This document shows, piece by piece, positions 4,460-36,062 of a stretch of 42,980 bases of DNA. Both the position numbers and the translations under genes were made by a program. This DNA is from Solirubrobacterales bacterium. Lineage in GTDB: Bacteria; Actinomycetota; Thermoleophilia; Solirubrobacterales; 70-9. Positions within the stretch are counted from its first letter, which is position 1, and each line of letters starts with the position of its first letter. Location of the stretch: positions 1 to 42,980 of the forward strand of contig DASZZB010000194.1 in NCBI GenBank assembly GCA_035545115.1. Reading direction: 5' to 3'. The notes below the pieces were generated by a model. That model did not search any database and was not told the DNA's origin. It saw only the letters and a list, made by a program, of their open reading frames with translations.

Positions 4460-4677
4460 GGCTTCGCCGACGTCCGCAAGATTGTCTACCGCGGGGACCA
4501 AACTCGATCTCCGATCCGGCGCCTCCGGCCCGGGAGCACCCGAGCGCGATCCCCGCACTTCCTGTTGGGACCGTAGCCAATCGCGCCGGCGATTACCAGG
4601 CCGCTTTGTGGATTCGCACACCTGCGCCCCGCCGCCGGCGCGAGCAAAGGGGCGACGGTTGATTTCCTTCGCTCACG

Positions 4678-5178
4678 GTGACAGGCACCCGGTTCGAGAG
4701 CGCGCACTTCCGCCAGGTGATGGGCCACCTGCCCACCGGTGTGAGTGTCGTCACCGGCCATGGGGCGGACGGCCCCGCGGGGCTCGCGATCGGGTCCTTC
4801 ATGTCGGTATCGCTGCAGCCGCCGCTGATCGCCATCAGCCCGGCGCTCAGCTCCGCCAGTTGGCCCGCCATCCGAGCGACCGGCCGTTTCTGCGTAAACG
4901 TATTGGCGGCAGGCCAGACCGATCTGGCGCTGGGCTTCGCCGTCTCCGGCGGCGAGAAGTTCGCCGATCTCGAGTGGCACCTCGGGCCGGGAGGCTCGCC
5001 GGTCCTGGATGGAGCGGTCGCCTGGGTCGACTGCCGGATCGCCTCCGAGCAGGAGGCGGGCGACCACTGGCTCGTCCTCGGCTCGGTCGAGGAGCTCGAC
5101 CTCGGCGCCGATGGCGAGCCGCTGATCTTCCATCGCGGTGCGTTCGATCGCTTCCGCCCCGCCGACCGCGAAACCTGA
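4678..5178 (+). CDS. flavin reductase (FMN-binding split-barrel, HpaC/NtaB-like)
   Basis: 166 aa with a GTG start. FRQVMGHLPTGVSVVTG and SFMSVSLQPPLI are typical of flavin reductase domain proteins. Confidence 0.85.
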   Translation: MTGTRFESAHFRQVMGHLPTGVSVVTGHGADGPAGLAIGSFMSVSLQPPLIAISPALSSASWPAIRATGRFCVNVLAAGQTDLALGFAVSGGEKFADLEWHLGPGGSPVLDGAVAWVDCRIASEQEAGDHWLVLGSVEELDLGADGEPLIFHRGAFDRFRPADRET

Positions 5179-5407
5179 ATCCACTGCTCTCTCCTCTCTG
5201 GGCGACCTGGCCCGCATCCCGCGTGGGAACCGCGAACCTAGGTCCCGTGGATCGAGACGGGGGCGCCAGTGGAAAAAGGCCTTGTAGATCCCTCCAAGGC
5301 GCCGACCCACCTACCCGGTCGAACTCGACGACGAAGCGGGCCCGCCGCGCTACGTTCGATCGGGGTGGGCTGCCCGCGCCACGACAGCAAAGGAGAGAGA
5401 GCCGCAG

Positions 5408-11065: not shown

Positions 11066-11827
11066 ATGTTGACCGAGGGGGCCGGGGCGATCGTCTTCGG
11101 CGGCGCCTCGGGGCTCGGTGAGGCGACCGCGCGCCGTCTCGCGGCCGCTGGGGCGCGAGTCGTGATCGCCGACCTGGCGGGCGACCGGGCGCGGGCTCTC
11201 GCCGTGGAGATCGGCGGGAACGGGGCGGCGGCGAACGTGCTCGACGAGGAAGCCGTCGCCGCCGCCGTGGAGGACGCCGCGGGCGCCCCGCGCGGGCTGC
11301 GGATCTGCGTCAACTGTGCCGGGATCGGCCCGCCCGGGAAACTGGTCGGGCGCGACGGCCCGACCCCGCTGGCGAGCTTCAGCAAGATCATCGAGGTGAA
11401 CCTGATCGGGACGATCAACACGCTGCGGCTCGCCGCCGCCCGGATGCTCGAGAACGATCCCGAGGAGGGCGGCGAGCGTGGAGTCTGCGTCAACACCGCC
11501 TCGGTCGCTGCCTTCGACGGCCAGGTGGGCCAGGTCGCCTACAGTGCCTCGAAGGCCGGGATCGCCGCGATGACGCTGCCGCTGGCGCGCGAGCTCGCGA
11601 GCCGCGGGGTCCGCGTCGTGACGATCGCCCCCGGCCTCTTCGATACCCCGCTCCTCGCCTCCCTCCCCCAGGAGGTCAAAGACTCGCTCGGGGCCTCGGT
11701 GCCGTTTCCTCCCCGGCTCGGTCGCCCGAGCGAGTACGCCGACCTGGTCGCCGCGATCGTCTCCAACCAGATGCTGAACGGGGAGACGATCCGGCTCGAC
11801 GGGTCGATCCGGATGGCGCCGCGTTGA
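11066..11827 (+). CDS. SDR, 3-hydroxyacyl-CoA dehydrogenase type-2-like
   Basis: 253 aa. It has [14 protein letters not shown], the catalytic YSASKAG, and an [10 protein letters not shown] segment typical of HSD10/FadB2-like SDRs. Confidence 0.8.
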
Positions 11828-11869
11828 GCGGCGCCATCCGACGCCTTGGAACTGGAACCTGTCTCGAGA

Positions 11870-13045
11870 TCAGATGCGCTGGATCAGCGTCCCGGTCCCG
11901 AGACCGCCGCCGCAGCACATCGTGACCAGGCCGAGTTCGGTGTCGGATCGCTCGAGCTCGTGCAGCAGCGTCGCGATCAACCGCGCCCCGCTCGCGCCCA
12001 GTGGATGGCCGAGCGCGATCGCGCCGCCGTTGACGTTTACCCGTTCCAGGTCCGGCTCGATCTCGCGGCTCCAGGCGGCGACCACCGAGGCGAACGCCTC
12101 GTTGACCTCGAAGCGATCGACGTCGCCGGCGCCGATCCCGTTGCGGGTGAAGAGCTCCCGCGTGGCCGGGATCGGCCCGGTAAGCATCGTCACCGGATCG
12201 ACCCCCACCGTGGTCTGGTCGACCAGGCGCGCCCGTGGCTCGAGGCCGAGCGCGGCGGCCTTCTCGCGCGCCATCAAGATCACGGCGGCGGCGCCGTCGG
12301 AGATCTGGGAGGAGTTGCCGGCGGTGATCTTCCCGTCCTCCTTGAAGGCCGGCCGCAGGGCCGCCAGCCCCTCGGTCGTCGTCTCGCGCAGGCCCTGGTC
12401 GATGGTCTGCAAGCCGTCGGCGGTGCGGATCGGCGCGATCTCGCTCTGGAAGCGTCCCTCGTCGGTGGCGCGGCGGGCCAGTTGCTGGGAGCGCAGGCCG
12501 ATCTCGTCGAGCTCGGCTCGCCCGATCTCCCACCGGTCGGCGATCATCTCTGCCGCGAGGCCCTGGTTGACGAGGTCGTAACGGGCCGCCAGCTGCGGCG
12601 TGATCGGCGAGCCATAGCGCTCGTTCGACTCGGCGACGGCGGCGAAGGAGATGTGGCCCATGTGCTCGACCCCGGCGCCGACCGCGACATCGTGGACCCC
12701 GGCCGCGATCAAGCCGGCGGCGACGTTGACCGCCTGTTGGCCGGACCCACACTGCGTGTCGAGCGTGTTCGCCGGCACCTCCATCGGCAGGCCCGCCTCG
12801 AGCCACGCGTCGCGGGCGATGTTGAGGCTCTGCTCGCCGATCTGCTGCACGCACCCGGCGAATACGTTGCCGACCTCGGCCGGGTCGATCCCGGCCCGCT
12901 CGATCACCGCGCCGTAGGCGTGAGCAAGCAGGTTGGAGGGGTGCAGATCACGGTAGATCCCCTTCTCGGGGTGGCCGCGGCCGATCGCGGTGCGGACCGC
13001 CGCGACGATCACCACCTCGCGGCTGCCGTTGTCATGCATCGTCAT
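11870..13045 (-). CDS. acetyl-CoA C-acetyl/acyltransferase (thiolase)
   Basis: It has the active-site region LDTQCGSGQQAV and the C-terminal NVNGGAIALGHPLGASGARL and MCCGGGLG motifs. I placed the start at ATG 13045 (MTMHDNGSREVVIVAA). Confidence 0.9.
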   Translation of the reverse strand: MTMHDNGSREVVIVAAVRTAIGRGHPEKGIYRDLHPSNLLAHAYGAVIERAGIDPAEVGNVFAGCVQQIGEQSLNIARDAWLEAGLPMEVPANTLDTQCGSGQQAVNVAAGLIAAGVHDVAVGAGVEHMGHISFAAVAESNERYGSPITPQLAARYDLVNQGLAAEMIADRWEIGRAELDEIGLRSQQLARRATDEGRFQSEIAPIRTADGLQTIDQGLRETTTEGLAALRPAFKEDGKITAGNSSQISDGAAAVILMAREKAAALGLEPRARLVDQTTVGVDPVTMLTGPIPATRELFTRNGIGAGDVDRFEVNEAFASVVAAWSREIEPDLERVNVNGGAIALGHPLGASGARLIATLLHELERSDTELGLVTMCCGGGLGTGTLIQRI

Positions 13046-13200
13046 CGGTTGCTCCTTCACGTTCGTCTCGACGGTCGCCCGGCGCACCGCCGCCGAGGCC
13101 TTACCGGACCTCGACCGGGAGCGTCGAGGCGCTCCGCCCCGCTCGCCGGATACCTTCGCGGTGACCTGGCGCCGGTGTCCGGCATCTACGACCAGTCTGC

Positions 13201-13224
13201 GCGGGGCCGCCGCGGCGGCCCCGC
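13201..13224 (-). terminator. GC-rich hairpin downstream of the LLM gene
   Basis: GCGGGGCCGC-cgcg-GCGGCCCCGC forms a 10-bp perfect stem, 17 nt past the minus-strand stop at 13241. There is no clear U-tract. Confidence 0.4.
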
Positions 13225-13240
13225 TCGCGACTCGGATCGA

Positions 13241-14338
13241 TCAGGCGGCCGCCGTCTGCTTCGCGGTGACCTTGCGCAGCTCCGGGACCACCTTGGAGCC
13301 GATCAGCTTGAGGCTTTCTTCGACCAGCTCGAAGGGCATCCCGGCGTAGGACACCGCCATCGCCGGGCGGAGTTCGCCGGTCGTCGCAACCCGCTTCTTC
13401 CAGCCCTCGACGATTTCCTCGGGCGTGCCCCATAGCTGGGACTGCACGAAGCTCTCGGCCGCCGCCTCGAGCCCGGCCTCGCGGATCGCGTCGGCGCCCG
13501 CCTGGTAGGCGGTGTAACCCTGGGTTTCACCCCAGTGCGAGCCATCGAAATCGTAATGTTTGATCACCGTCAGGTAGTACTTCGAGAGGTACTCGCGGGC
13601 AACTTCCTCGGCGACCTTGGGGTCTTCGTGGCAGAAGGTGAAGTCGGAGAAGATCGGTGCGCCTGGATCTTTGCCGGGATGCACTTCGTGGAAGCGATTG
13701 CGCCACGCTTCGACGCCTTCATGGTGCTGCTCCCAGGGAAGCTGGACGAAGGACATCATCGTGCCACCGATGTTCGCCGCGGCGATGCCCGAATCGGGCG
13801 ACATCGCCACCGAGTTGAAGCCCCGCTCGCGCCAGTTGACCGGCTGCCAGGGGTGAATCTCCACCCGTGACTGCTTGAAGTAGGGCGTGTCGTACTCGGC
13901 GACGCCGGTTTCGAGGATCTCGAGGATGATCTCCGAGGCGGTGTCGAACCGCTCGCGCGCCTCCGACATCGGGACCCCGAACGCCTCGTACTCCTTTTTT
14001 GCCAGCCCGCGGCCGAAGCCGAGCATGAATCGGTCGCCGAGCAGGATCTCCAGCATCGCGACCTTCTCCGCCACCCGCGTCGGCTGAACCCACCAGGGCA
14101 GGATGATCGCGCCGGTGCCGATCTTGATCCGGTCGGTCTTCGCGGCCAGATAGGCACACCACTGCATGTTGTCGGGCATCATCGCGTAACCGGGATCGAA
14201 GTGGTGCTCGGGAGCCTGGACGAAGTCCATCCCCACTTCCTCGGCGAGGATCGCGATGTCCGTCTCGCGGCGGAACATCTCCGCGTCGGTCATCCCCTCG
14301 CGGGTGTTCTGGAAAATGAATTGCAGACCGCATTCCAT
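13241..14338 (-). CDS. LLM-class flavin/F420-dependent oxidoreductase
   Basis: 365 aa with the luciferase-like fold pattern (FVQAPEHHF, GTGAIILPW). A GGAGGAC RBS lies upstream. Confidence 0.85.
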   Translation of the reverse strand: MECGLQFIFQNTREGMTDAEMFRRETDIAILAEEVGMDFVQAPEHHFDPGYAMMPDNMQWCAYLAAKTDRIKIGTGAIILPWWVQPTRVAEKVAMLEILLGDRFMLGFGRGLAKKEYEAFGVPMSEARERFDTASEIILEILETGVAEYDTPYFKQSRVEIHPWQPVNWRERGFNSVAMSPDSGIAAANIGGTMMSFVQLPWEQHHEGVEAWRNRFHEVHPGKDPGAPIFSDFTFCHEDPKVAEEVAREYLSKYYLTVIKHYDFDGSHWGETQGYTAYQAGADAIREAGLEAAAESFVQSQLWGTPEEIVEGWKKRVATTGELRPAMAVSYAGMPFELVEESLKLIGSKVVPELRKVTAKQTAAA

Positions 14339-14365
14339 CGAAAGTCCTCCGTATTTTCTTGGGTG

Positions 14366-15211
14366 CTACCTGACGTAGACGTCGGGCCACGCTTCGCGCC
14401 GTGGGATCACGCCTACGGTCTCGTTAACTTCGTTGTGCCAGAGGCGCGAGAACAGCTTGTCCTCGAGCGGCTTGAGCTCACTGGCGGCGTCGCTGCGGAA
14501 CTGCTCCAGGGCGGCCGCGTTCTCGACCCAGATATGGGCCATGCCGTCCCAGGGATCCATGAACTTTTCCCGTCGCACGACCTCGGCCGGAGCCTCGGTC
14601 TCGCCCCACACCTCCGACTTGAAGAACTTTTCCCGCACGTCGCTGCTCTCGTCGGGAATCGTGAAGTTCAGTGTGTAGCCGAAGAGGTCGTCGCACTTCG
14701 AGTAGAGCGGTGCGTACTCCTCGGCCCAGATCTTGCGGAATTCCTCATCGCTGAGTCCGTCGGCCTTCGCGCCCCACTGGATGATCTTGGTGATGAAGCG
14801 CTCCGGCCTCACCACGGGTACGATCTCGGTCTCTTCGAGGCCGAATTGGTACGGGATCCCGATGTATAGCCACTCGCTGTCCTCGGCGAGGACCGGGTTC
14901 AGCGCTTCCGACTGCATCCCATCGGGTCCGACCCGATCTTCGACCTCGCCGGCGTTCGAGTCGTAGTAGTCCTGCTCGTTGTCGAACCACAACTCCGAGT
15001 ATCCGTCCCACATCTTGATGAACCCGTCGGGCGGGTTGTCGCTGGCGAACAGATTTTTTTCGTCGCTCCCCGGCGCCCACACACAGTTCACATAGCCACG
15101 GATCTTCGGTAGGCGTCTGGCGATCGATACGTGGAATCCGGCATGACCTTCTCGGTACTGGTCATGCGTCAGGTACGGCGGACGCTCGCAAAAGCCGATG
15201 ATCTTGTGCAC
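14366..15211 (-). CDS. tandem EthD-like (dimeric alpha/beta-barrel) domain protein
   Basis: 281 aa. Two halves each begin with an EthD-like pattern: MHKIIGFCERPPYLTHDQYREGHAGFH...RGYVNCVW and ITKIIQWGAKADGLSDEEFRKIW...GYTLNF. The family call is from pattern memory only. Confidence 0.55.
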   Translation of the reverse strand: MHKIIGFCERPPYLTHDQYREGHAGFHVSIARRLPKIRGYVNCVWAPGSDEKNLFASDNPPDGFIKMWDGYSELWFDNEQDYYDSNAGEVEDRVGPDGMQSEALNPVLAEDSEWLYIGIPYQFGLEETEIVPVVRPERFITKIIQWGAKADGLSDEEFRKIWAEEYAPLYSKCDDLFGYTLNFTIPDESSDVREKFFKSEVWGETEAPAEVVRREKFMDPWDGMAHIWVENAAALEQFRSDAASELKPLEDKLFSRLWHNEVNETVGVIPRREAWPDVYVR

Positions 15212-15293
15212 TGTCAGACCTGTCCCTTCTCCATTCCCGAAATTAACCCTCCGGTGGCGATGATAGGTCTGAGTCGAGTGCCGCCATCGCGCT

Positions 15294-16871
15294 TCATCCG
15301 GAGGGCTTTGTGCGTTCCTCCAAATCGCCTGATCCCATCGTCACCTGGGTGAGCTCGTCCGCGCTGAGATCGCCGTAGCGATAGGTCGCGCAGGGCTTGC
15401 CGTCGACGAGGACCACGATCCGGTCGCAGAGAGCGAGCAACTCCTCCGACTCGGTCGAGGCGACCAGCGCCGCGGCACCCGCCTCGACGGCGTCCCGGAC
15501 GATCCGGTGGATCGACGCCTTGGCCCCCACGTCGACGCCCTGGGTCGGCTCGTCGAGCACCAGCAGCTTCGGATTCAGCCGCATCGCGCGCGCCATCATC
15601 ACCTTCTGCTGGTTGCCGCCGCTCAACTCCAGTAGCTGCGCCTCCGATCTCCGCGGCACCACGTCAAGCTTGTCGAGCCAGGCCCGAACTTCGGCCCGCT
15701 CGCGACTCTTGGACAGCCCCAGCGGCCCGTAGGCGGGATCGAGATTGCAGATCGTCAGGTTTTCGCGGATCCGCATCGATGGCAGCGCCGCCTTCGAAAG
15801 CCGATCGGCGGGGACGAAGGCCATCCCGCTGCGGAAGCAGACGTCGGGCCGCTCGGCCGGGATCACCCGCCCCTCGAGGCGAACCTCGCCCTCGCGACTG
15901 CGGCCGCCGCAGACCAGTTCCGTCACCTCCTCGCGGCCGGAGCCGGTGACGCCCGCGATGCCGACGATCTCGCCGGCGCCGATATCGAGGTCGAGGCTCT
16001 CGAGCACCTCGCCGCGCAGCCCGCGGACGCTGAAGACGGTGCCCTCGTCGGTTTGCGGCTCATGCGGGTGGACGGGCGCCAGGGCATCCAGTTCCCGGCC
16101 GATCGTCAACTCGGTCAGCGAGCGCTCGGTCAGTTCGGCGGCGGCCATCGTCGCCACCCGCTCGCCGTCGCGGAGCACGGTTATCCGGTCGGCGATCTCG
16201 AAGACCTCGGCGAAGCGGTGGGAGACGTAGACGATCGCCACGCCGCGATCCCGCACCCGCCGGATCACCTCGAACAGGCGCCGCACTTCGGCGGCGGGAA
16301 GCGAGGCCGTGGGCTCGTCGAGGACGAGGACGCGAACCTTGTCCGACCAGTCCTCGAGCGCCCGCGCGATCGCGACGCCGGTCCGCTGCGATGCGGTAAG
16401 CCTGTAGATCGGGGTCTTCGGGTTGAAGTCGAAGCCGAGCTCGGCCAGGGTCTGCCTGCCGGCCCGTGCCTCCCGTCGCCAGGAGATGGTCCCGAGCTTG
16501 CCGCGGTGATACCCGCGGCCCAGTGCCAGGTTGTCGAGCGCACTCAGGGTCGGCGCCAGCCCGAGGTCCTGATGGACGAAACGCAACCCCGCGTCGGCGG
16601 CCGCGGTCGAGTTGCCGAGGTCGAGCGGGGCGCCGGCGACGAGCGCCGACGCTCCCCGGTCGGGCTGGTGGTAGCCGGCGAGGACCTTGATCAGCGTCGA
16701 CTTGCCGGACCCGTTCTGCCCGACCAAGGCGTGCACCTCGCCCGGCCGCAGGTCGAAGTCGACGTGGTCGAGCGCCATCTGTCCGGTGAAGGTCTTGGAG
16801 AGACCTCTGATCGCCAGCACCTCCCGGCCGGCGGTTCGTGCACCCGAACCGTTTGCCGATGCCGTCGTCAT
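15294..16871 (-). CDS. sugar-type ABC transporter ATP-binding protein (two fused ATPase domains)
   Basis: The start at ATG 16871 forms an ATGA overlap with the permease stop. Walker A motifs GQNGSGKST and GVTGSGRE, signature LSGGNQQK and Walker B LLVLDEPT are present. The upstream 181 codons of the track ORF overlap the permease gene. Confidence 0.9.
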   Translation of the reverse strand: MTTASANGSGARTAGREVLAIRGLSKTFTGQMALDHVDFDLRPGEVHALVGQNGSGKSTLIKVLAGYHQPDRGASALVAGAPLDLGNSTAAADAGLRFVHQDLGLAPTLSALDNLALGRGYHRGKLGTISWRREARAGRQTLAELGFDFNPKTPIYRLTASQRTGVAIARALEDWSDKVRVLVLDEPTASLPAAEVRRLFEVIRRVRDRGVAIVYVSHRFAEVFEIADRITVLRDGERVATMAAAELTERSLTELTIGRELDALAPVHPHEPQTDEGTVFSVRGLRGEVLESLDLDIGAGEIVGIAGVTGSGREEVTELVCGGRSREGEVRLEGRVIPAERPDVCFRSGMAFVPADRLSKAALPSMRIRENLTICNLDPAYGPLGLSKSRERAEVRAWLDKLDVVPRRSEAQLLELSGGNQQKVMMARAMRLNPKLLVLDEPTQGVDVGAKASIHRIVRDAVEAGAAALVASTESEELLALCDRIVVLVDGKPCATYRYGDLSADELTQVTMGSGDLEERTKPSG

Positions 16872-17956
16872 AACGCGGAGCTCTGGCGGCCGGAGCGCAC
16901 CGCCAACGCCACCGCGATGATCAGCACGGCGCCGTTGATGACTTCGTCCATCCAGAATTGCGCACCGAGAAGCTGCACACCTTTCACCCCGGTCGCCAGC
17001 ACGTAGACCGCGACGAGCGTCCCCGGCACGTTGACGTTCCCCTCCTTGAACTGGGTCGCCCCGAGGAAGACCGCCGCGAACGCGGGCAGCAGATATGGAG
17101 CGCCCGCATTCAGGGAGGTAGAGCCGATCCGCATCAGGAAGATGATCCCGGCGATCGTGGCGATGCCGGCGGAGATGACCAGCCCGATCGCGGTGAGGCG
17201 TCCGACCCGTACACCGGCCAGCCGCGCGGCATCCGCGTTCGAGCCCGCCGCGTAGAGGTATCGGCCTGTCTGGCGGTACTCGAGCAGGTACCAGACCAGG
17301 CCGGCGATGACGAGCATGTAGAAGAACGGCATCGGGATGGTGAACAGCGTTCCCCTGCCCAGGCTGGTGAAGCCTTTGGGGATCTGGGTGATCACTTCGC
17401 CACCGCTGATCCACTGCTGCATCGCGACCAGGATCGATCCGGAGCCGAGGGTCGCGATGAAAGAGTTCACCTTCAGCACGCCGACCACGTAAGAGTTGAA
17501 GACCCCGATCAGGATGCCCGCGAGGAGCGTCAGCGCGATCGCGAACGCCGGCGACACATTCATTTTGGCCATCAGCGAGGCGACGACGATCACCGCGATG
17601 CCGAAGGCCCCGCTGATCGAGAGGTCGAACTGCCGCGCGGCGATCGGGCCTACCAGCGCCAGCGCCATGATCGCGGTCACCGCCTGTTCGCCCATGATGG
17701 TGCGGGCGGTGTTCATGCTGAGGAAGGTGTGGGGCTCGAGGATCCCGAACAGGATGATCAGCCCGGCCCAGATGAAAAGCAGGCTCGCGTTGCGGACCCC
17801 GGAGGCCAGGGCATGGCCGACCGCGGCGAGGCTCAGGCCGCCGCCGCCCCGGCCACCGCTCGGGGCGGTAACCGCGGCGCCACCCGCGGCTCCCCCCTCG
17901 GGGGGAGCCGCGGACGTGCCCTCGGGAGGGAGGGTCTCGGACGAGTCGCGACTCAT
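16868..17956 (-). CDS. ABC transporter permease (ribose/xylose-type, BPD family 2)
   Basis: 362 aa with multiple hydrophobic helices and a low-complexity N-terminal tail. It sits between the binding-protein and ATPase genes. Confidence 0.85.
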   Translation of the reverse strand: MSRDSSETLPPEGTSAAPPEGGAAGGAAVTAPSGGRGGGGLSLAAVGHALASGVRNASLLFIWAGLIILFGILEPHTFLSMNTARTIMGEQAVTAIMALALVGPIAARQFDLSISGAFGIAVIVVASLMAKMNVSPAFAIALTLLAGILIGVFNSYVVGVLKVNSFIATLGSGSILVAMQQWISGGEVITQIPKGFTSLGRGTLFTIPMPFFYMLVIAGLVWYLLEYRQTGRYLYAAGSNADAARLAGVRVGRLTAIGLVISAGIATIAGIIFLMRIGSTSLNAGAPYLLPAFAAVFLGATQFKEGNVNVPGTLVAVYVLATGVKGVQLLGAQFWMDEVINGAVLIIAVALAVRSGRQSSAL

Positions 17957-17990
17957 CTCTGACAGTGCTCCCGTCGGTGCAAACCGTTGA

Positions 17991-19211
17991 TCACTTACTC
18001 ACCTGCCACAGTTCTTCGTATTCCTGCTTGAGCGTCGGCGGCAGGTTGTTCCAGGTCTCTTCGGTCGCGTTAGGCGGCAGATTTTCTTTGGTGAAGATCT
18101 GCGTCATCAGCGGCACTTCGTCCTGCTGTGGCATGCCGACCGCGTGTCGGGCAACGGCGTCTATGCCCTGGTAGGCAGCGGATAGCTGCGAGTACGCCAT
18201 CACCCCCAGGAAATTCCCTTCTTCGACGCTCTTCATCGCTTCGGGAGTGGCGTCGTTGCCCATGATCTTGACCTTGCCCAGCAGACCGGCTTCGCGGAGG
18301 GCCGCTTCGAGGCCGGTGGCCATGACCATGTCCTGCAGGATCACGTAGTTCATCGACGGGTCGCGCTGCAGTTCGCCGATGATGATCGACGGCAATTTGG
18401 TCCCGGTGTCTTCCGCCTGAGCGGTGATCGTCTTCGTCTTGCATTCCGGGCAGTTGTCGGCGACCGTTTTCGACGTCGTTTCGATGATCCGCGTCGAAAG
18501 CGGGAATCCCGCGTACTGGACAAGCAGGGCGTCGCCTTTTCCTTCGCTGTCGGCGATGAACCAGTTGGCGGTCGCTTCCGACATCGTGTCGAAGGCACCC
18601 TGCTGGTAATCGACCTCGATGAACGGCGGCGTAGCTTTTCCGGTCAATTCGCCCAGCTGGGTAACGATCGGGATTCCGGCATCCGCCGCGGCTTCTGCCG
18701 CGGGTTCATAGGTTTCGCGGGCGATGCCGTCGATGAGGATCGCGTCAGGATGTTCGGAGACGGCCTGCGAGATTTTCGCCAGGTCGTCTTCCGGGGCGCC
18801 GCTGAAGGCCACCTTCTTGGTCGTCCAGCCGAGCAGCTTGCCGGCTTCTTCGACGCCGTCACGCCAGCCTTCGCAAACCGAGAGCTCACAGGAGAGCGCG
18901 ACGACGTGGAGGCCGGTCGGGGGCGCTTCTTTCAGCGGCACGGTGTTCCCGACGTTGGGCGGCGGCTTGAAATATGGGGCAGAAGCCTTTTCCGCCGCGG
19001 CCACCACTTCCGACGTGCCCGATTCGCTCTTGGCTGAGCTTTCTTCGCTGCTTTCCGCGCCGGCGGCTTCCGTGCTTTCGCCGCTACTGGAACCTCCACC
19101 GCCACAGGCGGCGATGAGCCCACCTAGCGCAATGATCGCCAAGCCCACTGAAAGGGCGGCGAGCAGTCGCCGCACGCGTCGGTGGTCCCCGGGACGAAAC
19201 GGCTCACCCAT
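17991..19211 (-). CDS. ABC transporter substrate-binding lipoprotein (periplasmic binding protein type I)
   Basis: 406 aa. It has a signal peptide with a lipobox (LIAAC-GGGG), a Ser/Glu-rich linker, and then a PBP-like body. It is the first gene of the transporter string. Confidence 0.8.
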   Translation of the reverse strand: MGEPFRPGDHRRVRRLLAALSVGLAIIALGGLIAACGGGGSSSGESTEAAGAESSEESSAKSESGTSEVVAAAEKASAPYFKPPPNVGNTVPLKEAPPTGLHVVALSCELSVCEGWRDGVEEAGKLLGWTTKKVAFSGAPEDDLAKISQAVSEHPDAILIDGIARETYEPAAEAAADAGIPIVTQLGELTGKATPPFIEVDYQQGAFDTMSEATANWFIADSEGKGDALLVQYAGFPLSTRIIETTSKTVADNCPECKTKTITAQAEDTGTKLPSIIIGELQRDPSMNYVILQDMVMATGLEAALREAGLLGKVKIMGNDATPEAMKSVEEGNFLGVMAYSQLSAAYQGIDAVARHAVGMPQQDEVPLMTQIFTKENLPPNATEETWNNLPPTLKQEYEELWQVSK

Positions 19212-19621: not shown

Positions 19622-19671
19622 CGAACGCGCCCGACTGGATTCGAACCAGTGACCTTCGGTTTCGTAGACCG
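19622..19671. repeat. left copy of the 50-bp perfect direct repeat (att-like; 3' part of tRNA-Arg)
   Basis: Identical base for base to 26129-26178. The flanking bases differ on both sides. Confidence 0.95.
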
Positions 19672-19700
19672 GGCCGGGGGCTCGGCTGGGCTACGGGGGG
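19626..19700 (-). pseudogene. pseudo-tRNA-Arg (intact 3' part, degenerate 5' part)
   Basis: The 3' 46 nt equal those of the tRNA at 26133-26206. In the 5' part, 15 of 18 acceptor/D-stem positions are retained, with a 1-nt indel, a disrupted D-arm and two acceptor-stem mismatches, so it cannot form a clean cloverleaf. Confidence 0.7.
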
Positions 19701-20073
19701 CTCGGTTTCAAGCGGCTTTCGCCAGATCGGACTCGGCTGAGATCGGCTGAACTCCGTGTCGCACCGTGCCCCATTTCGTGCCCCGCGGACCTCGCCGACC
19801 GATGCCGCGGCGGCGGCCGTCCGCACACGATCCGCAGAACGACCCGCACCTACCGGGTGGTCGCCACTTCTGTCGTTGCGGTCATCAGCAGCTGGACAAA
19901 GGCCACCATTCACAGGTTGAGCGGCTCCGGTTGAAAGACGAGCGTAGATCGTCCATTAAACGCTCGCCAATAACCTCGGATACGAGGCGGAGCGTCTGCG
20001 GCTTTACGAATTGCCTTCGAAGGCTTCCGGCTCGAGGGAGACCCCAAGCCACCTAACCTCCACGCCAGCGCTC

Positions 20074-23019
20074 CTATCCAGGCCGGTCATCACCGACGTC
20101 CCGGCCATCTGGGGATGCAACAAAGTCGCACTGCCCACGCATCCAGCGACCGATGAGGTCACGCTGCTCCGGGCTTAGCGTTAGCTCGGCCAAACGGCGC
20201 GCTGCCTCATCCTCAGAACCAATCTGCAGTCGATTAAGGAAAATGGGCTCGACCAGTTCGAAGAACGGATGCGGCCTGCCGAACATTTCGTCTCTAACCC
20301 ACTCTTGAGCCCGCGTCTCAGGCATCTCCTGCCTGAGACGCTGCTCAAGGTGCACCGATGCGGTGACGATCAGACCAAACAGCAAATCCGCAGGCACGGG
20401 CGCATACGCGTTCTCCGGCTCAGGCGTTAGCGGGAAGAAACCGGACGCGTCGGTCCAAGGCGGGACATGATCGAGCAGGATAGTCGCCGCTTCCTCCAGA
20501 ACCCTTATCCATTGCGCCTGTAGCACTTCTCCGCCGACCTCTCCTCGAAGCACCCACTGCGCTGCATTGGCGAGAACTGGAGAGAAGAACGCATGAGACT
20601 CGAGCACCACGTCTCGGGTTTCGAAAAGTGCCCTGAGCCCGTGCGCGTCGACTAGCTCTTTGATGTTGAGGTCGCCATCGTAGGCGAGAGATGAGGCGAG
20701 AGCGGCACTGCTTACTGAAAGCGCGCGGCGCTCCGAGCGAGTTTCACTCTTTGCGGCACTAATCGTCTCCTGCCAAAGCGCGATGCTCTCTGGCGTGGTG
20801 GCCCCACGTCCCAGTTCCGACAAGCAAAGAGACGCAGCAACTGCCGCGGGATCCGGCGATCGAATCGCCTCGAGAATCACATCAATCGTAGTGGCAGCAA
20901 CCGCCCGCTGCGTCTCCGCGCCTGCTTTGGCCAGGCCGTATCCGATCCCGGACATCGCCACACCTACGTCGAGGTCGCGCCCCCCACCTCTCGCCACCAC
21001 TGAGATGAGGAACATCGTTGCATGTCTGGTCAGCACCCGTACGACCGCAGGACTTGGCACTAGGAATGCTAGGCATTCGATTCCAAAGAGAAGTAGATGC
21101 CCTCGCTCAAGCACTTCCGCCTCATTGCTTCGGCGAATGATGTCGTTCAGAAGCTGATCAGATGCCATCAGCGTACTTTTGCTTTTCAGCTGGTACGCAA
21201 CCTGTGCGACGACCCACCATTCTCTTTTCGTAATACGTGGCGCGAGGCGCTCGCTAAGCTCTGCGGTGGTCTCCGCCGTCGCGACAAGGTGATCAGCGGC
21301 GAAATACTCCAAGAAGGTTCGATGCGTGAACTGGAAGAGCTTTTCGCCGTCAGCCGTCGTGCCGGTGTCCGTGAAGACCCAGGCGCGTCCAGCGCAAAAG
21401 TCGATGAATGCCTCTGCGGCATTACGCGCCTCGTATTCATCGTCAAATCGGAACTTAAGAAGAAACTCAACCGCCCTGTCCACCAGTTGACGCTCGCTTG
21501 CGCCGCTCTGGAGACTCTCGTGTTCGTAAATCCACAATGCCAAGAACCGCATTGCCGGCCGAATGTGCTCGGCTATCGGCAATACGGCAACGATGCCGCG
21601 GCTTCGATCCCACGTCTCGAAAAGCATTTTTGCGCACGTTTCGTACACCTCAGGTAGGTGCCGGGGCAGGTAGTTCTGGCCTAGATAGAAGTTGCACATA
21701 AGAGCAAGCAGCAATGGATTCGTCCGTAGGTCCGGCACTGCCCGACTCTCTTCAATGAAGGCCTCCGCCTTATCGTGCCGCTCTCGCGCAGAGAGGTCCT
21801 CTTCGAGCTGGAACCATTTGTGTGCGTAGCTTTCAACCTGCTCGTCGGTGAACTCGGATAGATGCACGACATCGAATACAGTCTCGTCCAAGGGGGCCTG
21901 CTCGTAGCCGACCTTGCGGGACGTAACTAAGAGACGCGCGGTTGGAAACCGGCGATGAAAACTCTCAACGTCGTCGCGCACCTGCTGGCGATGCCGGGTC
22001 TCAAGCAGCTCATCGAGCCCATCGAAGATCACCATCAGGCGCCCAGAAAGGAGCAAATATTCGATAGCTCCGCCTGGTACATCGAGTTGATATCGACTTG
22101 ATGCCACAGACTCGATATATTCGACTATCGACCAGCCGCGCTCTTTGCGCGTAGCGCTGTATTCCCTTAAAGTGACCATGACTGGCGTGACGGCTCTAAC
22201 GTCACTGCTGGCTTGTGCCCTGCCAGATAGCGTATGGCACAATTTCGCAGCAAGCGTTGACTTGCCGCCGCCAGGATCGCCCAAGACGACACCCTGCTGC
22301 AAATGATCTATCCAGCGCTGCACAGGCGTGCGTTCAGGCTCATCTTGCGTGCGCCGAACAAGATGTGGCATGACGTAAAGAAGATCAATTGGCACTCGCT
22401 CCGCACCGTAGAAGTCAGGCGGTGAAATAGTCCCGTGGCGACCATGAACCTCACGGCGTAATTCGTCCTCAAACTTGGTGACGTCGACTTGGAGCAAAGG
22501 GGTATCTCCTACGAGGTAATCCATGCGCCGCTGCATTGCTTCAAGGTGTTGCATCGTCATTTGATGACGAGCACTCGCCCTTGCCTCATGCGCCGATAGA
22601 ACGCCATCTTGGATTGCGGCCCCAACAACATTCTCCGCGGCTTCGAGCAAAGCTTCAAAAGATGCTTCTCCAATGTCCTTGGTGCCTAACTGAGCCCGAT
22701 CCCACAGCGCCAAGAACTCTGCTCGCGCCTGCTCCAAGCCTAGTCCGTGGTCGTCCAGGCGAAATACGAACATGCTCGTTACGAGGTTGCGCACCTCTGC
22801 CGAGGAAAGAAAGTCGCCGAGCGTCTCATCCGACAACTCCGCAGACCGTAGGCTTTCCATCTTCTGCGCCGTGCCCTGGATGATGGTGGCGTAACGGCCT
22901 TGTTCGCGTTTTACTGCGTCATCTACGTCTTCTGACCTGTTTGACCCGCGAAGCAGAGGGCTGAGTCCCATTTCCCAGATGGCTTGGGCCACAATGTTAA
23001 GCAGGATTGCTTCTACCAT
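20074..23019 (-). CDS. NACHT-domain NTPase (bacterial NLR-like / STAND), candidate antiphage sensor
   Basis: 981 aa. It has Walker A GDPGGGKST, Walker B LMVIFDGLDEL, LLVTSR, NPLLLALMC and the winged-helix motif FTHRTFLEYFAA. About 230 aa of N-terminal helical region and about 350 aa of C-terminal region carry no motif I recognise. Confidence 0.85.
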   Translation of the reverse strand: MVEAILLNIVAQAIWEMGLSPLLRGSNRSEDVDDAVKREQGRYATIIQGTAQKMESLRSAELSDETLGDFLSSAEVRNLVTSMFVFRLDDHGLGLEQARAEFLALWDRAQLGTKDIGEASFEALLEAAENVVGAAIQDGVLSAHEARASARHQMTMQHLEAMQRRMDYLVGDTPLLQVDVTKFEDELRREVHGRHGTISPPDFYGAERVPIDLLYVMPHLVRRTQDEPERTPVQRWIDHLQQGVVLGDPGGGKSTLAAKLCHTLSGRAQASSDVRAVTPVMVTLREYSATRKERGWSIVEYIESVASSRYQLDVPGGAIEYLLLSGRLMVIFDGLDELLETRHRQQVRDDVESFHRRFPTARLLVTSRKVGYEQAPLDETVFDVVHLSEFTDEQVESYAHKWFQLEEDLSARERHDKAEAFIEESRAVPDLRTNPLLLALMCNFYLGQNYLPRHLPEVYETCAKMLFETWDRSRGIVAVLPIAEHIRPAMRFLALWIYEHESLQSGASERQLVDRAVEFLLKFRFDDEYEARNAAEAFIDFCAGRAWVFTDTGTTADGEKLFQFTHRTFLEYFAADHLVATAETTAELSERLAPRITKREWWVVAQVAYQLKSKSTLMASDQLLNDIIRRSNEAEVLERGHLLLFGIECLAFLVPSPAVVRVLTRHATMFLISVVARGGGRDLDVGVAMSGIGYGLAKAGAETQRAVAATTIDVILEAIRSPDPAAVAASLCLSELGRGATTPESIALWQETISAAKSETRSERRALSVSSAALASSLAYDGDLNIKELVDAHGLRALFETRDVVLESHAFFSPVLANAAQWVLRGEVGGEVLQAQWIRVLEEAATILLDHVPPWTDASGFFPLTPEPENAYAPVPADLLFGLIVTASVHLEQRLRQEMPETRAQEWVRDEMFGRPHPFFELVEPIFLNRLQIGSEDEAARRLAELTLSPEQRDLIGRWMRGQCDFVASPDGRDVGDDRPG

Positions 23020-23030
23020 TCTGGGAGAGC

Positions 23031-23222
23031 CTACCTCGAGAGTAAGTCCTTATGCAACGTCGAGCGGAATGCGCTCGCACGCAGTTCGGTAATGCTGTCA
23101 GAGGCTCGCGTTACTTCGTAGGTTTCTGAAAAGCCACCGAATTCGAGTTCGTGTGCAAACCGGTCGTCGTTCGTGCTGAAGATGCTGGGGTCATGCTCGA
23201 CACTTCCGGCGGAATCAGGCAT
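23031..23222 (-). CDS. hypothetical small acidic protein (63 aa)
   Basis: The ATG at 23222 overlaps the nuclease stop (ATGCCTGA). The stop TAG lies 11 nt before the NACHT ATG. The composition is protein-like and not a GC-shadow pattern. I recognise no homology. Confidence 0.3.
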   Translation of the reverse strand: MPDSAGSVEHDPSIFSTNDDRFAHELEFGGFSETYEVTRASDSITELRASAFRSTLHKDLLSR

Positions 23223-24306
23223 TGCGACGATCCGCTGATTCGCGCGCTTCGACCAGTTGTCTCCACTCGACTTGGCCCTTTTCGCTGATCTCGATCTCTC
23301 GCAATCTGACGGCGAATGACCCCGGGAGAGTCTTCTCGACCTGGGCTGCGGAGGTCGCAGAAAATGCTGCCACCGAGCTGATGAGCTCCAAGGTACCCTC
23401 GCAAACCACGAGCAAGGTCCCATCATCGCGAAGTGCCGCTCGTTGGACTCGATCTCGATCAAGCGGCGCATGCTTCTCCGCAATCACTAAGAGCATCGCC
23501 AGGTCGGCGCCGAGCTCGGCCGCCCCTCGCGACAGCTCGAGCGCCACATCCTCGCCGACCGGGAGCTGCTTTGCCTCAACCGCGAGGACGATCGCGCCAT
23601 CCGATGCGACCCGGACGTCACCGGGATGCGGGCTGTTGATCGGCTGAAGTTCAACATCATCGAAGGCGCAGTCGAGAACCGCAGCGGCGAGGGCCTGAGC
23701 GCGTTTGCCGCCTTCCGGGGTGGCCCGAACAAATCGATCGACCATACCGACGAGGTCCTCGAGGGCGACGTCGCTTGCGAGTCTTTTGGCTGCGCGGGCT
23801 GCCTCTCGTTCGGCCGCCTGAACACCCATGCGCACACGAAGGAACGCCGCCAGGACCGAGAGGGTTTCGGTGCTCTCGATCCGATTGAGGTCCCGAAGGG
23901 CATCGAGAAAGGCTTCGTACGCTGGCCGCGCTTTTCCCGAGATCTTCGTAAATTCGTCGATTCGCGCCGGGCCCCCGAGGAAGGGTCGATTGTTGAGAGG
24001 CCAGCGTCCCTTCGCGCCCAAATCGTATCGGTCGTTGTTTTGCTGAGCGAGAAACTCGGCCGCCCTCCGCAAGCTGTAACCGCGAGGGCCCGCCGCCTCG
24101 TCCTGGGCGAGACCGTCGACCCGTGGATCGGTCGCCTTGGCAAGCAGGGCGCCGCCCAATGCAGCGATGTAGGTCTTGATTCCCAGGCCACCGAGACGCT
24201 CCACGCGCGCGATCCACAGCGCAGGCAACTCCTCGGTCGACCGCGCCAACGCGAGCGCGTTATCGAGAGTCAGAAGTAGTGCCTGGTCTTCGAGTCTGAT
24301 CCCCAT
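23215..24306 (-). CDS. PD-(D/E)xK nuclease, probable type II restriction endonuclease
   Basis: 363 aa. HPGDVRVASDGAIVLAVEAKQ fits D-x13-E-x-K. The gene lies 63 nt downstream of, and co-directional with, a C5-methyltransferase gene. Confidence 0.6.
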   Translation of the reverse strand: MGIRLEDQALLLTLDNALALARSTEELPALWIARVERLGGLGIKTYIAALGGALLAKATDPRVDGLAQDEAAGPRGYSLRRAAEFLAQQNNDRYDLGAKGRWPLNNRPFLGGPARIDEFTKISGKARPAYEAFLDALRDLNRIESTETLSVLAAFLRVRMGVQAAEREAARAAKRLASDVALEDLVGMVDRFVRATPEGGKRAQALAAAVLDCAFDDVELQPINSPHPGDVRVASDGAIVLAVEAKQLPVGEDVALELSRGAAELGADLAMLLVIAEKHAPLDRDRVQRAALRDDGTLLVVCEGTLELISSVAAFSATSAAQVEKTLPGSFAVRLREIEISEKGQVEWRQLVEARESADRRNA

Positions 24307-24369
24307 GCCACGGGAAAGCTAACTCGGCCTTCCGACACTCAGAAGATGTCAGGCTGGTCAGGCCGATCG

Positions 24370-25500
24370 CTAAGCGGCCAACGCAAGCTCCCGCGATGGC
24401 GCGCAATCGAGCCGCCTGAGTTCGTCGGCGATCGCAGTTGCGACCGCCCGCCCGAGGTCTGGGGGGACCGCGTTGCCCAGTTGAAGCTGTTGCTCCCTTC
24501 GAGACCCCAGAACCACGAAGTCGTCGGGGAAAGTCATCAGCCTCTTGACCTCCGCTACTCGCAGCCGTCTGCTCTCCCAATGAAACGGACCAACCCAAGG
24601 ACCCGGTTGACCTTGGATGGTCGGGGAAGGCTTGTCCGGGTGGAGCTTTAGAAGGAAGCTCCAGTAGCGGGACCGCCACTTGAACTGGGGTGCCTTGTGT
24701 CCGCGCTCGGCGGTCCAAAAGAGATAGTTCTCGCCAGAAGGGACTGCGTGAAGAGCATCAGCATAGGTGCCTTTGACGACCTCCTCCGGCTCAGGCGGAT
24801 TGATCTCGTCAGGAAGCGACGCAAGCGCCTGGCCGGTGCTCACGTGGACGGGCAAGTCCTCGTTCCAGCCGGTTCGCGTCTCATGCGGCCCTGAGTGCGT
24901 CGGCTCGGGCCACTCGAACTCCCACGCCTTCGCAGAGCCGGGGATGAGATCGCGACGAATGCCCACGCAGAAGAGTCTCTGTCGAAGCTGAGGGATGCCG
25001 AGGTCCGCGGCAAGGACGATCCGAAACTCGACAACGTAGCCCGCGGTGCGGGCGGCCTGGAGGAATCGCTCAAGAACCGCATGGTTCTGATTCCGATAGG
25101 CGAGGCCGTAGACGTTCTCCATCAGGAATGCCTTCGGCTGGACGCCTCGCAGCATGCGGATGTACTCGTCCAGCAGGCTTGCGCGCGGGTCTTCTCCGGC
25201 ACGCTTGTAGGCGAGCCAATAGCCGGACTTGGAAAAGGGGGTGCAGGGAGGTCCACCATGCAAAAGGGATACCTCCCCTGATTCGAGGCCGCTTCGCTCG
25301 AGCAGATCCTGCGGCTCCGTCTCAAGGATGTCGCTGAACACCGCCTCCTCCCCCAACTGCGGGAAGAACTGAGAGCGGTTTGCGAGCATCGTTTTCCGTG
25401 CGGTCTCATCCCACTCGACAACCGCCTGCGTGTCGAAGCCGGCCGCCTCGCAGCCGAGATCGAGGCCGCCCGCCCCAGAGAAGAGGGAGATCGCATCCAT
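24370..25500 (-). CDS. DNA (cytosine-5)-methyltransferase
   Basis: It has motif I LFSGAGGLDLG, motif IV GGPPCTPFS, motif VI FLMENV, motif VIII QLRQRLF and motif X GNAVPP. I placed the start at ATG 25500 (MDAISLFSG...); the track start at 25629 is less likely. Confidence 0.9.
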   Translation of the reverse strand: MDAISLFSGAGGLDLGCEAAGFDTQAVVEWDETARKTMLANRSQFFPQLGEEAVFSDILETEPQDLLERSGLESGEVSLLHGGPPCTPFSKSGYWLAYKRAGEDPRASLLDEYIRMLRGVQPKAFLMENVYGLAYRNQNHAVLERFLQAARTAGYVVEFRIVLAADLGIPQLRQRLFCVGIRRDLIPGSAKAWEFEWPEPTHSGPHETRTGWNEDLPVHVSTGQALASLPDEINPPEPEEVVKGTYADALHAVPSGENYLFWTAERGHKAPQFKWRSRYWSFLLKLHPDKPSPTIQGQPGPWVGPFHWESRRLRVAEVKRLMTFPDDFVVLGSRREQQLQLGNAVPPDLGRAVATAIADELRRLDCAPSRELALAA

Positions 25501-25531
25501 GCTTCCCAACCTAGAATCTGCCCCCGATGGA

Positions 25532-25975
25532 ATGACCGCCCAGCGATCGATCATCACCGTTCCCAAAGCGCCTGAAGCTTCCTCGCCGGCGGTGAGGGCG
25601 GTCATGAAGGGAAACCGCAAGCGGGACACTCGTCCCGAGCTGGCGATCCGCTCGGAGCTTCATCGGCGCGGATTCCGCTACCGAGTCGACGCCCGGCCGA
25701 TCATCACGCTGCGCTGCAAAGCCGACATCGTCTTCCGGCCCAAGAAGGTGGCCGTGTTTGTGGATGGCTGCTTTTGGCATGGATGCCCGGACCACGGAAC
25801 GAGCCCGAAGACCAACGCAGGCTATTGGCACGCAAAGATCGGTCGAAATGTGGAGCGAGACCGAATGAACGAGGCCGAGCTTGTCGCTGCCGGCTGGACG
25901 GTGATCAGGGTCTGGGAGCACGAGAGTCCGGGGGATGCATCGGAGCGAATTGCGCGGGTTCTGAAAGGCGCGTGA
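25532..25975 (+). CDS. vsr: very-short-patch repair endonuclease (Vsr)
   Basis: RDTRPELAIRSELHRRGFRYRV and FVDGCFWHGCP are Vsr hallmarks. It is divergent from the C5-MTase. An alternative ATG at 25499 would overlap the MTase start codon. Confidence 0.85.
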   Translation: MTAQRSIITVPKAPEASSPAVRAVMKGNRKRDTRPELAIRSELHRRGFRYRVDARPIITLRCKADIVFRPKKVAVFVDGCFWHGCPDHGTSPKTNAGYWHAKIGRNVERDRMNEAELVAAGWTVIRVWEHESPGDASERIARVLKGA

Positions 25976-26128: not shown

Positions 26129-26178
26129 CGAACGCGCCCGACTGGATTCGAACCAGTGACCTTCGGTTTCGTAGACCG
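26129..26178. repeat. right copy of the 50-bp perfect direct repeat (inside the intact tRNA-Arg)
   Basis: Identical to 19622-19671. Confidence 0.95.
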
Positions 26179-26206
26179 ACGCTCTATCCGGCTGAGCTAC
26201 GGGCGC
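26133..26206 (-). tRNA. tRNA-Arg (anticodon ACG)
   Basis: The reverse complement folds by hand as GCGCCCG-TA-GCTC-AGCCGGATA-GAGC-G-TCGGT-CTACGAA-ACCGA-AGGTC-ACTGG-TTCGAAT-CCAGT-CGGGCGC-G. CCA is not encoded. Confidence 0.9.
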
Positions 26207-26268
26207 GTGCCGGCGGAGGTGGGGCGCGCCAGGGGCGGCCGCTCCGCGGGAGGCGGGATTCTAGCCGT

Positions 26269-31855: not shown

Positions 31856-31937
31856 AGCGCTTGTCCGATGTGAGAAAGCGCAAGAAACCGTGGAGAGATT
31901 TCTCCGTGGCCGGGTGCCCCCACCGTCGCCGCGGCCA

Positions 31938-32026
31938 CGGAGAGGGAGGGATTCGAACCCTCGAGAGAGCTTGCGCCCCCTACTCGCTTAGCAGGCGAGT
32001 GCCTTCAGCCACTCGGCCACCTCTCC
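31938..32026 (-). tRNA. tRNA-Ser (anticodon GCU)
   Basis: The reverse complement has acceptor GGAGAGG/CCTCTCC, anticodon stem CTCGC/GCGAG with loop CTGCTAA, a long variable arm and T-loop TTCGAAT. Confidence 0.9.
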
Positions 32027-32106
32027 GGGTCCGCGAGCCGGATCGCCCGTCCCGCGAAGGACCGATTGTAGGTACTGACCGGGGATCGCGGGATTAGGCT
32101 GACGCG

Positions 32107-35932: not shown

Positions 35933-36021
35933 GGAGGGGTGGCAGAGCGGTTGAATGCGGCGGCCTTGAAAGCCGTTGGGCGTCTTACGGCGTCTCGTGG
36001 GTTCGAATCCCACCCCCTCCG
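35933..36021 (+). tRNA. tRNA-Ser (anticodon UGA)
   Basis: It has acceptor GGAGGGG/CCCCTCC, anticodon loop CTTGAAA, a long variable arm and T-arm GTGGG-TTCGAAT-CCCAC. Confidence 0.85.
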
Positions 36022-36062
36022 CTGCGGCAGGAAACGGGGCCCGCCGGCCGAACGTCCCGAAC

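Follow-up and report, generated by a model that had tools for sequence, protein, structure and literature searches.

A 42,980-nucleotide stretch of DNA from a Solirubrobacterales bacterium (GCA_035545115.1, contig DASZZB010000194.1, positions 1–42,980; hereafter the window) carries four co-directional genes on its minus strand. These encode a C5-methyltransferase (MTase; 24370–25500), a restriction endonuclease (REase; 23215–24306, 363 aa), a small open reading frame (ORF) designated orf63 (23031–23222, 63 aa) and a NACHT NTPase (20074–23019, 981 aa). A Vsr gene (25430–25975, plus strand) is divergent from that of the MTase. The initial annotation of this region, made from the sequence, offered two hypotheses: either these are simply stacked defences, or they form an integrated system in which the nuclease acts in trans as the effector of the NACHT protein. 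We conclude that they are very probably stacked, independently circulating defences within a decayed tRNA-Arg island, comprising a restriction-modification (R-M) cassette with its Vsr and an unrelated NACHT gene as cargo. The hypothesis of simple stacking is supported by the failure of the two genes to co-occur in the 84 and 76 loci surveyed, by the exchange of the NACHT gene for other DNA in related islands, and by the difference between the modules in GC content at the third codon position (GC3).

The NACHT and REase genes are found apart

How general is the arrangement seen in the window? The survey of gene neighbourhoods that the initial annotation had proposed was run from both sides. On one side 84 loci with NACHT homologues were examined, of which 80 come from species-representative genomes with flanks of up to ±10 kb, and 75 include at least 3 kb upstream. 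Using tblastn, no REase, MTase, Vsr or orf63 was found in any of these (0/84). On the other side we examined 76 metagenomic loci with REase homologues, 28 of which extend at least 3 kb downstream of a near-full REase, and found neither the NACHT gene nor orf63 (0/76). Conserved co-occurrence of sensor and effector is required of an integrated multi-gene STAND system; here the two are apart in both samples, and the slot that holds the NACHT gene is swapped between islands. The annotation had itself accepted that integration fails if the genes never co-occur elsewhere, and the split Avs-like system that it envisaged is not supported.

The NACHT homologues have no constant company of another kind. 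All-against-all clustering of the 3,689 ORFs flanking them revealed no recurrent partner family, with no family of neighbours present in more than 8 of the 84 loci. An ABC-F ATPase occurs in 8 loci, a GntR regulator in 7 and an integrase in 6, these being the commonest together with an FtsK/Tra protein. The closest homologues among the matches listed (55–60% identity) are all single genes. In locus L001 the gene lies between oppositely oriented neighbours, in L003 and L085 it directly follows rsmI, and in L004 it is part of a mobile element, adjoining an integrase and AbiEii. At the REase loci, by contrast with the NACHT gene, an MTase adjoins the REase in essentially all those with room for it, and a Vsr in most.

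The two genes also differ in the distance to their nearest relatives. The REase has many relatives, mostly in metagenome-assembled genomes of Solirubrobacterales, and the nearest is 89% identical. The search for NACHT homologues scored the top 8,000 candidates and gave at least 751 homologues; nearly all of the best 120, which were listed, are about 1,000 aa in length, with 35–60% identity over 92–100% of the query. Their hosts include Actinomycetota, Chloroflexota, Planctomycetota, Cyanobacteria, Acidobacteriota and methanogenic archaea. The nearest relatives, at 89% for the REase and 60% for the NACHT protein among the matches listed, thus point to different histories for the two genes.

In L086, the locus of that closest listed NACHT homologue, a 38-nt tRNA-Arg-like fragment (750–787), oppositely oriented, is located ∼340 nt upstream of the gene, a hint that elements targeting tRNA-Arg also move the NACHT module.

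Constant backbone and variable slot of an island at tRNA-Arg

The five genes occupy a 6.4-kb segment of 55–65% GC content, in a genome of 71%. It is bounded proximally by an intact tRNA-Arg(ACG) gene (26132–26207, minus strand), the integration target, and distally by a partial or pseudo tRNA-Arg(ACG) (19626–19700, minus strand), both identified using ARAGORN. The intact gene has a canonical 5′ half, while that of the distal copy is divergent; its 3′ half of ∼49 nt does not differ from that of the real tRNA, with which it forms a direct repeat of att type. An identical 3′ half with a divergent 5′ half is the classic signature of integration into the 3′ end of a tRNA gene. There is no integrase in the window. 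However, a tyrosine integrase is found between tRNA-Arg and Vsr in the related islands L090 (976–2889) and L092 (6100–7685), and the window copy can therefore be regarded as a decayed integrative element. In L092 the integrase appears to be divided between two ORFs, perhaps by a frameshift, and L096 lacks an integrase, like the window. GC3 is 0.89–0.96 in host genes, 0.70–0.75 in the R-M and Vsr genes and 0.62 in the NACHT gene.

The same island was found by blastn in at least five related metagenome contigs, L096, L092, L088, L087 and L089. Two more, L090 and L091, share the R-M block, and these contigs end ∼0.5 kb past the REase. The constant Vsr–MTase–REase block corresponds to 23247–25938 of the window, and is 85.6% identical to L096 and 75–78% identical to L092, L091, L090, L088 and L087. 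In all six the homology ends within ∼15 nt of 23247. The flank with the tRNA-Arg (window 26413 to 26127) is matched in L096, L092, L088 and L090, and is 90% identical to L096 1–286. At the other end, the region of the distal repeat (window 19784 to 19600) is conserved in L096, L092, L088, L087 and L089.

Between these conserved parts lies a variable cargo slot (19785–23246). In the window it contains orf63 and the NACHT gene; in the syntenic islands these are replaced by unrelated DNA of 0.8–2.6 kb. L096 (3899–6439) and L088 (11075–13684) encode a DinG-like superfamily 2 helicase of ∼840 aa that matches the PADLOC defence candidate PDC-S28 (E = 2e-75). L089 (2146–3162) has an intact DUF4917/SIR2-like protein (E = 2.5e-69), and L087 a 423-aa ORF without family assignment (3903–5174) followed by a truncated DUF4917 (5199–6074). 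The slot of L092 holds a DUF3800 protein (11086–11877) on the opposite strand, convergent with the REase. In the other four of the five islands the first cargo gene is co-directional with the REase, and begins no more than about 30–110 nt past its stop codon, depending on the start codon that is chosen.

The island thus has two modules. The first is a self-contained SacI-family type II R-M system with Vsr, which forms the constant part of the island in Solirubrobacterales-like genomes. The second occupies the variable cargo slot, running from the REase stop codon to the distal att repeat, and in the window it is a single-gene, NLR-like NACHT protein.

This layout resembles known defence islands and integration hotspots in its fixed site (the repeat of the tRNA-Arg 3′ half), the presence of an integrase in some copies, the constant backbone and the interchangeable slot. 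Hotspots with variable defence cargo have been described for P2 and P4 (PMC9122126). It differs from those in being very small (6–8 kb), in that the backbone is itself an R-M/Vsr cassette, and in the loss of the integrase from the window copy.

The junction between REase and cargo

The close spacing of the genes had helped to make a single transcript seem plausible. The five ORFs of the initial annotation are all present in the ORF listing of the window, and the intergenic spacings of 63, −8 and 11 nt that it gave are correct; the ATGCCTGA overlap of the REase gene with orf63 can be read straight from the sequence. An alignment of REase 3′ ends suggests a different origin for this overlap. Among the other islands similarity is lost at the REase stop codon, while the window departs from them ∼8 nt earlier. 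Because the divergence precedes the stop, the window REase lacks the native stop codon and reads seven codons into the cargo DNA, giving a protein of 363 aa compared with 355–356 aa in nearly all close relatives (73–89% identical). We therefore take the 8-nt ATGCCTGA overlap to be the scar of a recombination or insertion junction, as judged from the alignment, and not a design for translational coupling.

Similarity between the NACHT module and L085 sets in at window position 23027, 8 nt before the NACHT start codon. As R-M homology ends at 23247, orf63 lies in ∼220 nt belonging to neither module. The reading frame proposed at 23031–23222 exists, but as a gene it is not supported, being an orphan within junction DNA. 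A tblastn search of 162 related loci at E ≤ 10 gave chance matches only. Against 1.84e9 representative proteins HMMER returned three marginal matches (E = 3e-4 to 1e-3), all to long multi-stretch proteins, and orf63 belongs to no Pfam, NCBIfam or PADLOC family. It is also absent upstream of all NACHT homologues examined. A role as a conserved small partner was therefore rejected, there being no credible relative in the loci or in the protein set, and orf63 is probably not a functional gene. We also considered the two-gene NLR layout of the amyloid Bell/BASS systems, in which the C-terminal motif of the small upstream gene is repeated at the N-terminus of the NLR. No such shared motif is seen here; by eye the C-terminus of orf63 (…RSTLHKDLLSR) is dissimilar to the N-terminus of the NACHT protein (MVEAILLNIVAQ…), and this layout was rejected.

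The annotation had noted the lack of a terminator between the genes, and a hairpin scan of the region agrees: no terminator-like hairpin is present at any gene junction, and the number in the region as a whole (8, compared with 6.0 ± 2.4 expected) is at the level of chance. RNA of the REase–NACHT junction has no more predicted structure than shuffled sequence (z = 0.65), and a scan of the minus strand ahead of the NACHT gene for sigma-70-like promoters found none; it used an E. coli-type consensus that is ill-suited to a high-GC lineage. In a genome of this high-GC, actinobacterium-like kind, scans for terminators, promoters and RNA structure cannot decide how the genes are transcribed. The single transcript that had been suggested for the four minus-strand genes is still plausible given that no terminator intervenes, yet what lies between them is an insertion junction and not a conserved operon. 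The tight spacing and the overlap would be by-products of that junction, and read-through from the R-M genes into the NACHT gene may be possible without being a conserved design.

A SacI-family R-M cassette with Vsr

The R-M and Vsr trio is a standard member of known families, and all three proteins pass curated thresholds (PF09566, PF00145 and TIGR00632). The protein initially described as a PD-(D/E)xK nuclease is indeed one, and can now be assigned more narrowly to the SacI family of type II REases (PF09566). It scores 64.9 bits against Pfam RE_SacI (cut-off 19.3, E = 1.5e-17) and E = 9.5e-29 against PADLOC REase_II. The catalytic residues D230, E244 and K246 are invariant in 30 homologues, so that the PD-(D/E)xK motif is intact. 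The enzyme thus shares the invariant PD…ExK residues of SacI-type systems, and the MTase–REase–Vsr arrangement recurs in dozens of related loci; it is distinguished by the seven-residue C-terminal extension made by the cargo junction.

A C5-MTase gene is located 63 nt upstream of that of the REase, as expected of the cognate enzyme. The protein matches Pfam DNA_methylase (PF00145) over the full length of the family (189.5 bits, E = 1.4e-55), in agreement with its first assignment, and is 92% identical to the L096 orthologue. Its top match in PADLOC is DruM; we attribute this to generic C5-MTase similarity and not to a Druantia system, the other genes of which are absent.

The divergent gene was likewise correctly identified as Vsr (TIGR00632, 132.8 bits with a cut-off of 97.85; Pfam Vsr, E = 6.5e-17). 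It adjoins the C5-MTase gene and overlaps its 5′ end. The longest ORF starts with GTG at 25430, giving a 71-nt overlap on opposite strands (25430–25500). This start is uncertain because homology to the family begins only at residue ∼52, and translation may in fact begin from an internal ATG (∼25499). If the ATG at 25499–25501 were used, the divergent start codons would overlap within a CATG palindrome. The overlapping geometry of Vsr and MTase recurs in the relatives L087, L090, L092 and L096.

From knowledge of these families, the MTase would methylate host sites and the REase would cut incoming DNA that is unmethylated, while Vsr would repair the T:G mismatches that arise on deamination of 5-methylcytosine, so limiting mutagenesis. 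Can the recognition sequence be deduced from site avoidance? The SacI site GAGCTC occurs 41 times in the window, compared with 29.6 ± 4.7 expected. This is a slight excess, with no depletion, and the approach was set aside as uninformative. Two GAGCTC sites fall within the REase gene itself (23383–23388 and 23512–23517). The specificity of the R-M system, like the antiphage role of the NACHT protein and its mechanism, is something that we infer.

The NACHT protein

The assignment of the 981-aa protein as a NACHT NTPase is confirmed by a match to Pfam PF05729 (54.3 bits, cut-off 26.7) over residues 244–404. The key motifs are invariant in 32 homologues: a Walker A sequence GxPGGGKST (G247, P249, G250, G252, K253, S254 and T255), a Walker B sequence DGLDELL (D333-G-L-D-E337), TSR (T366-S-R368), and H566, the winged-helix histidine. 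Koonin and Aravind reportedly singled out the Walker A motif, the NACHT-type Walker B signature and the sensor arginine in 2000 as motifs that define the family. The conserved winged-helix histidine is a feature of bacterial NACHT (bNACHT) proteins (bNACHT literature).

An AlphaFold2 model of the protein has a mean predicted local distance difference test (pLDDT) score of 83.9. In this model an all-helical N-terminal domain (1–195) is followed by the nucleotide-binding domain (NBD; ∼200–410), helical and winged-helix domains extending to ∼650, and a C-terminus of helical repeats (657–960). On comparison with the PDB using Foldseek, the top 40 matches are NLRP3, NLRC4, NOD2 and other NLRPs (E = 1e-9 to 1e-6). 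The predicted structure thus has the NLR-like fold of NBD, helical domain and winged helix. Proteins from different phyla retain this architecture over their whole length, yet the C-terminal third is hypervariable, with only two invariant columns past residue 657. A conserved core with a variable C-terminus matches the sensor pattern described for bNACHT proteins.

The initial annotation recognised no effector domain in this protein, and our searches were equally blank: residues 1–200 match nothing in Pfam, NCBIfam or PADLOC. From this it was a short step to suppose that a partner is needed, but that argument is weak. The full-length homologues are single genes, and proteins of the bNACHT01 clade and those with NNH helical N-termini are active as stand-alone proteins without an enzymatic effector (bNACHT literature). 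That no effector can be recognised is therefore not evidence for a partner in trans. Of known defence families, Avs/AVAST gave no match in PADLOC, where the best E value exceeds 1e-3, to unrelated models, and NCBIfam EruA matches the P-loop only (29.9 bits, cut-off 1000). The likeness to Avs and multi-gene STAND systems is accordingly superficial, lying in a STAND NTPase that adjoins a nuclease gene. In the present case the nuclease belongs to a complete R-M system, and among the loci surveyed the adjacency is unique to this genome.

The protein is closer to the bNACHT proteins (Kibby et al., bioRxiv 10.1101/2022.07.19.500537). Like them it is encoded by a single gene and is tripartite about a central NACHT module, with Walker A and B motifs, the DGLDE signature and the winged-helix histidine, a conserved core and a diversifying C-terminus, and it is found in defence and mobile contexts. 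The closest types are those with non-enzymatic helical N-termini (NNH), those with helical C-termini (NCH/HEAT), and the effector-less bNACHT01 clade. It cannot be placed in any named clade, however. The 195-aa helical N-terminus matches no Pfam family or PDB fold; and whereas bNACHT01 has the short SNaCT, here there is a long C-terminus of helical repeats (∼320 aa).

How might it function? By analogy with its family the NACHT protein would work alone. The variable helical repeats at the C-terminus would sense a phage cue, leading to NTP-dependent oligomerization through the NACHT module, with output by way of the all-helical domain conserved at the N-terminus; damage to membranes or an adaptor role are guesses. 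The first helix of that domain is hydrophobic, and there is a slight chance that the domain represents a novel type of effector, for example a membrane-disrupting helical bundle analogous to CC/HeLo. An actual identification of the N-terminus as CC-, HeLo- or Bell-like was dropped as unsupported speculation, after the profile and fold searches proved blank.

Surroundings of the island

Adjoining the island is a second stretch of lower GC content (13200–19200; 0.62–0.67), which may be another acquired segment. By eye it encodes a luciferase-like monooxygenase (13241–14338), a 281-aa protein (14366–15211) and the ATPase, permease and binding protein of a sugar-type ABC transporter (15294–19211). 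Downstream of the island there are tRNA-Ser genes at 31937–32027 and 35933–36022 (GCT and TGA anticodons). L088 has a tRNA-Ser(GCT) ∼4.4 kb from its tRNA-Arg, which is consistent with conserved chromosomal synteny.

Weighing the alternatives

Could the genes nevertheless form one machine? In an integrated system the NACHT protein would sense infection and activate the SacI-like nuclease in trans, with the MTase providing self-protection and orf63 serving as an adaptor. The tight, co-directional spacing with an 8-nt overlap and no terminator is what such a system might exhibit, as is a NACHT protein without a recognisable enzymatic effector, and the literature offers a precedent in principle in STAND systems whose adaptor domains recruit effectors in trans. 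Yet the partners are never found together in the 84 and 76 loci, and copies of the island in related contigs have other cargo where the NACHT gene would be. The overlap is a junction scar unique to the window, and orf63 has no credible homologue in 162 loci or 1.84e9 representative proteins. With an MTase and a Vsr of its own, the REase is a complete type II enzyme that is conserved, NACHT homologues having the same N-terminal domain are single genes, and the modules differ in GC3 and in the distance to their nearest relatives. We consider this integrated scheme extremely improbable. A looser, two-layer design has rather more to recommend it, although we still think it unlikely. Here the R-M cassette would drive read-through of whatever gene occupies the slot, so that the two are co-regulated and perhaps synergistic without being one machine. 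It would account for a co-directional first cargo gene starting within ∼110 nt of the REase stop in 4/5 syntenic islands, and fits with the failure to find a terminator at the window junction or, ahead of the NACHT gene on its own strand, a sigma-70-like promoter. But the DUF3800 cargo of L092 is convergent, the sample is just five islands, and the promoter scan used the ill-suited E. coli-type consensus. NACHT homologues elsewhere must moreover have their own promoters, as in L001 where the gene is divergent from its upstream neighbour. Slightly less probable again is that the NACHT protein has no part in defence, and is a signalling or regulatory NTPase of STAND type that has hitch-hiked in the island. 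Many of its homologues lie among housekeeping genes, no effector fold has been recognised, and it matches no antiphage model of PADLOC or NCBIfam beyond the P-loop. Against this, the slot otherwise holds the defence candidates PDC-S28 and DUF4917/SIR2-like, one homologue adjoins AbiEii and an integrase (L004), the spread across phyla is patchy, suggestive of horizontal gene transfer, with a hypervariable C-terminus, and bacterial NACHT proteins are broadly antiphage (bNACHT literature).

Stacking of independent defences in a decayed island remains by a good way our preferred explanation, and several points weigh against it. The 84 NACHT loci are a sample, including the best 80 of at least 522 genome relatives, and many of the REase contigs are short. 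It may well be that one transcript covers the four minus-strand genes, and they could then be coupled in regulation in this strain. Autonomous output by the NACHT protein is assumed from the distribution of its stand-alone homologues, and when the N-terminal domain was modelled separately with AlphaFold2 (pLDDT 75), no fold in the PDB was matched significantly (best Foldseek E = 0.75). The failure to match any antiphage model, noted above in relation to a role outside defence, counts here too. There is perhaps a small chance that one of two further things is true: that in this lineage the R-M system and the slot gene have become coupled, to the extreme of the REase being recruited as the output of the NACHT protein, or, separately, that the N-terminal domain is a new effector.

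Conclusions

The main value of this analysis is negative, in that the apparent operon of R-M and NLR-like genes is an insertion junction and not a new, split Avs-like system. On the positive side it defines a small tRNA-Arg island in which the SacI-type R-M/Vsr backbone is constant and the contents of a slot can be exchanged. The layout fits the known paradigm of defence islands and hotspots; nothing in it is categorically new, and the NACHT protein is an uncharacterised member of the bacterial NLR-related kind. The occupants of the slot, i.e. the NACHT clade, PDC-S28, the DUF4917/SIR2-like protein and DUF3800, each gain support as defence genes through guilt by association. The NACHT clade is large, with at least 751 homologues and relatives in at least 522 species genomes, and is absent from current defence models, making it a reasonable candidate for experiment.

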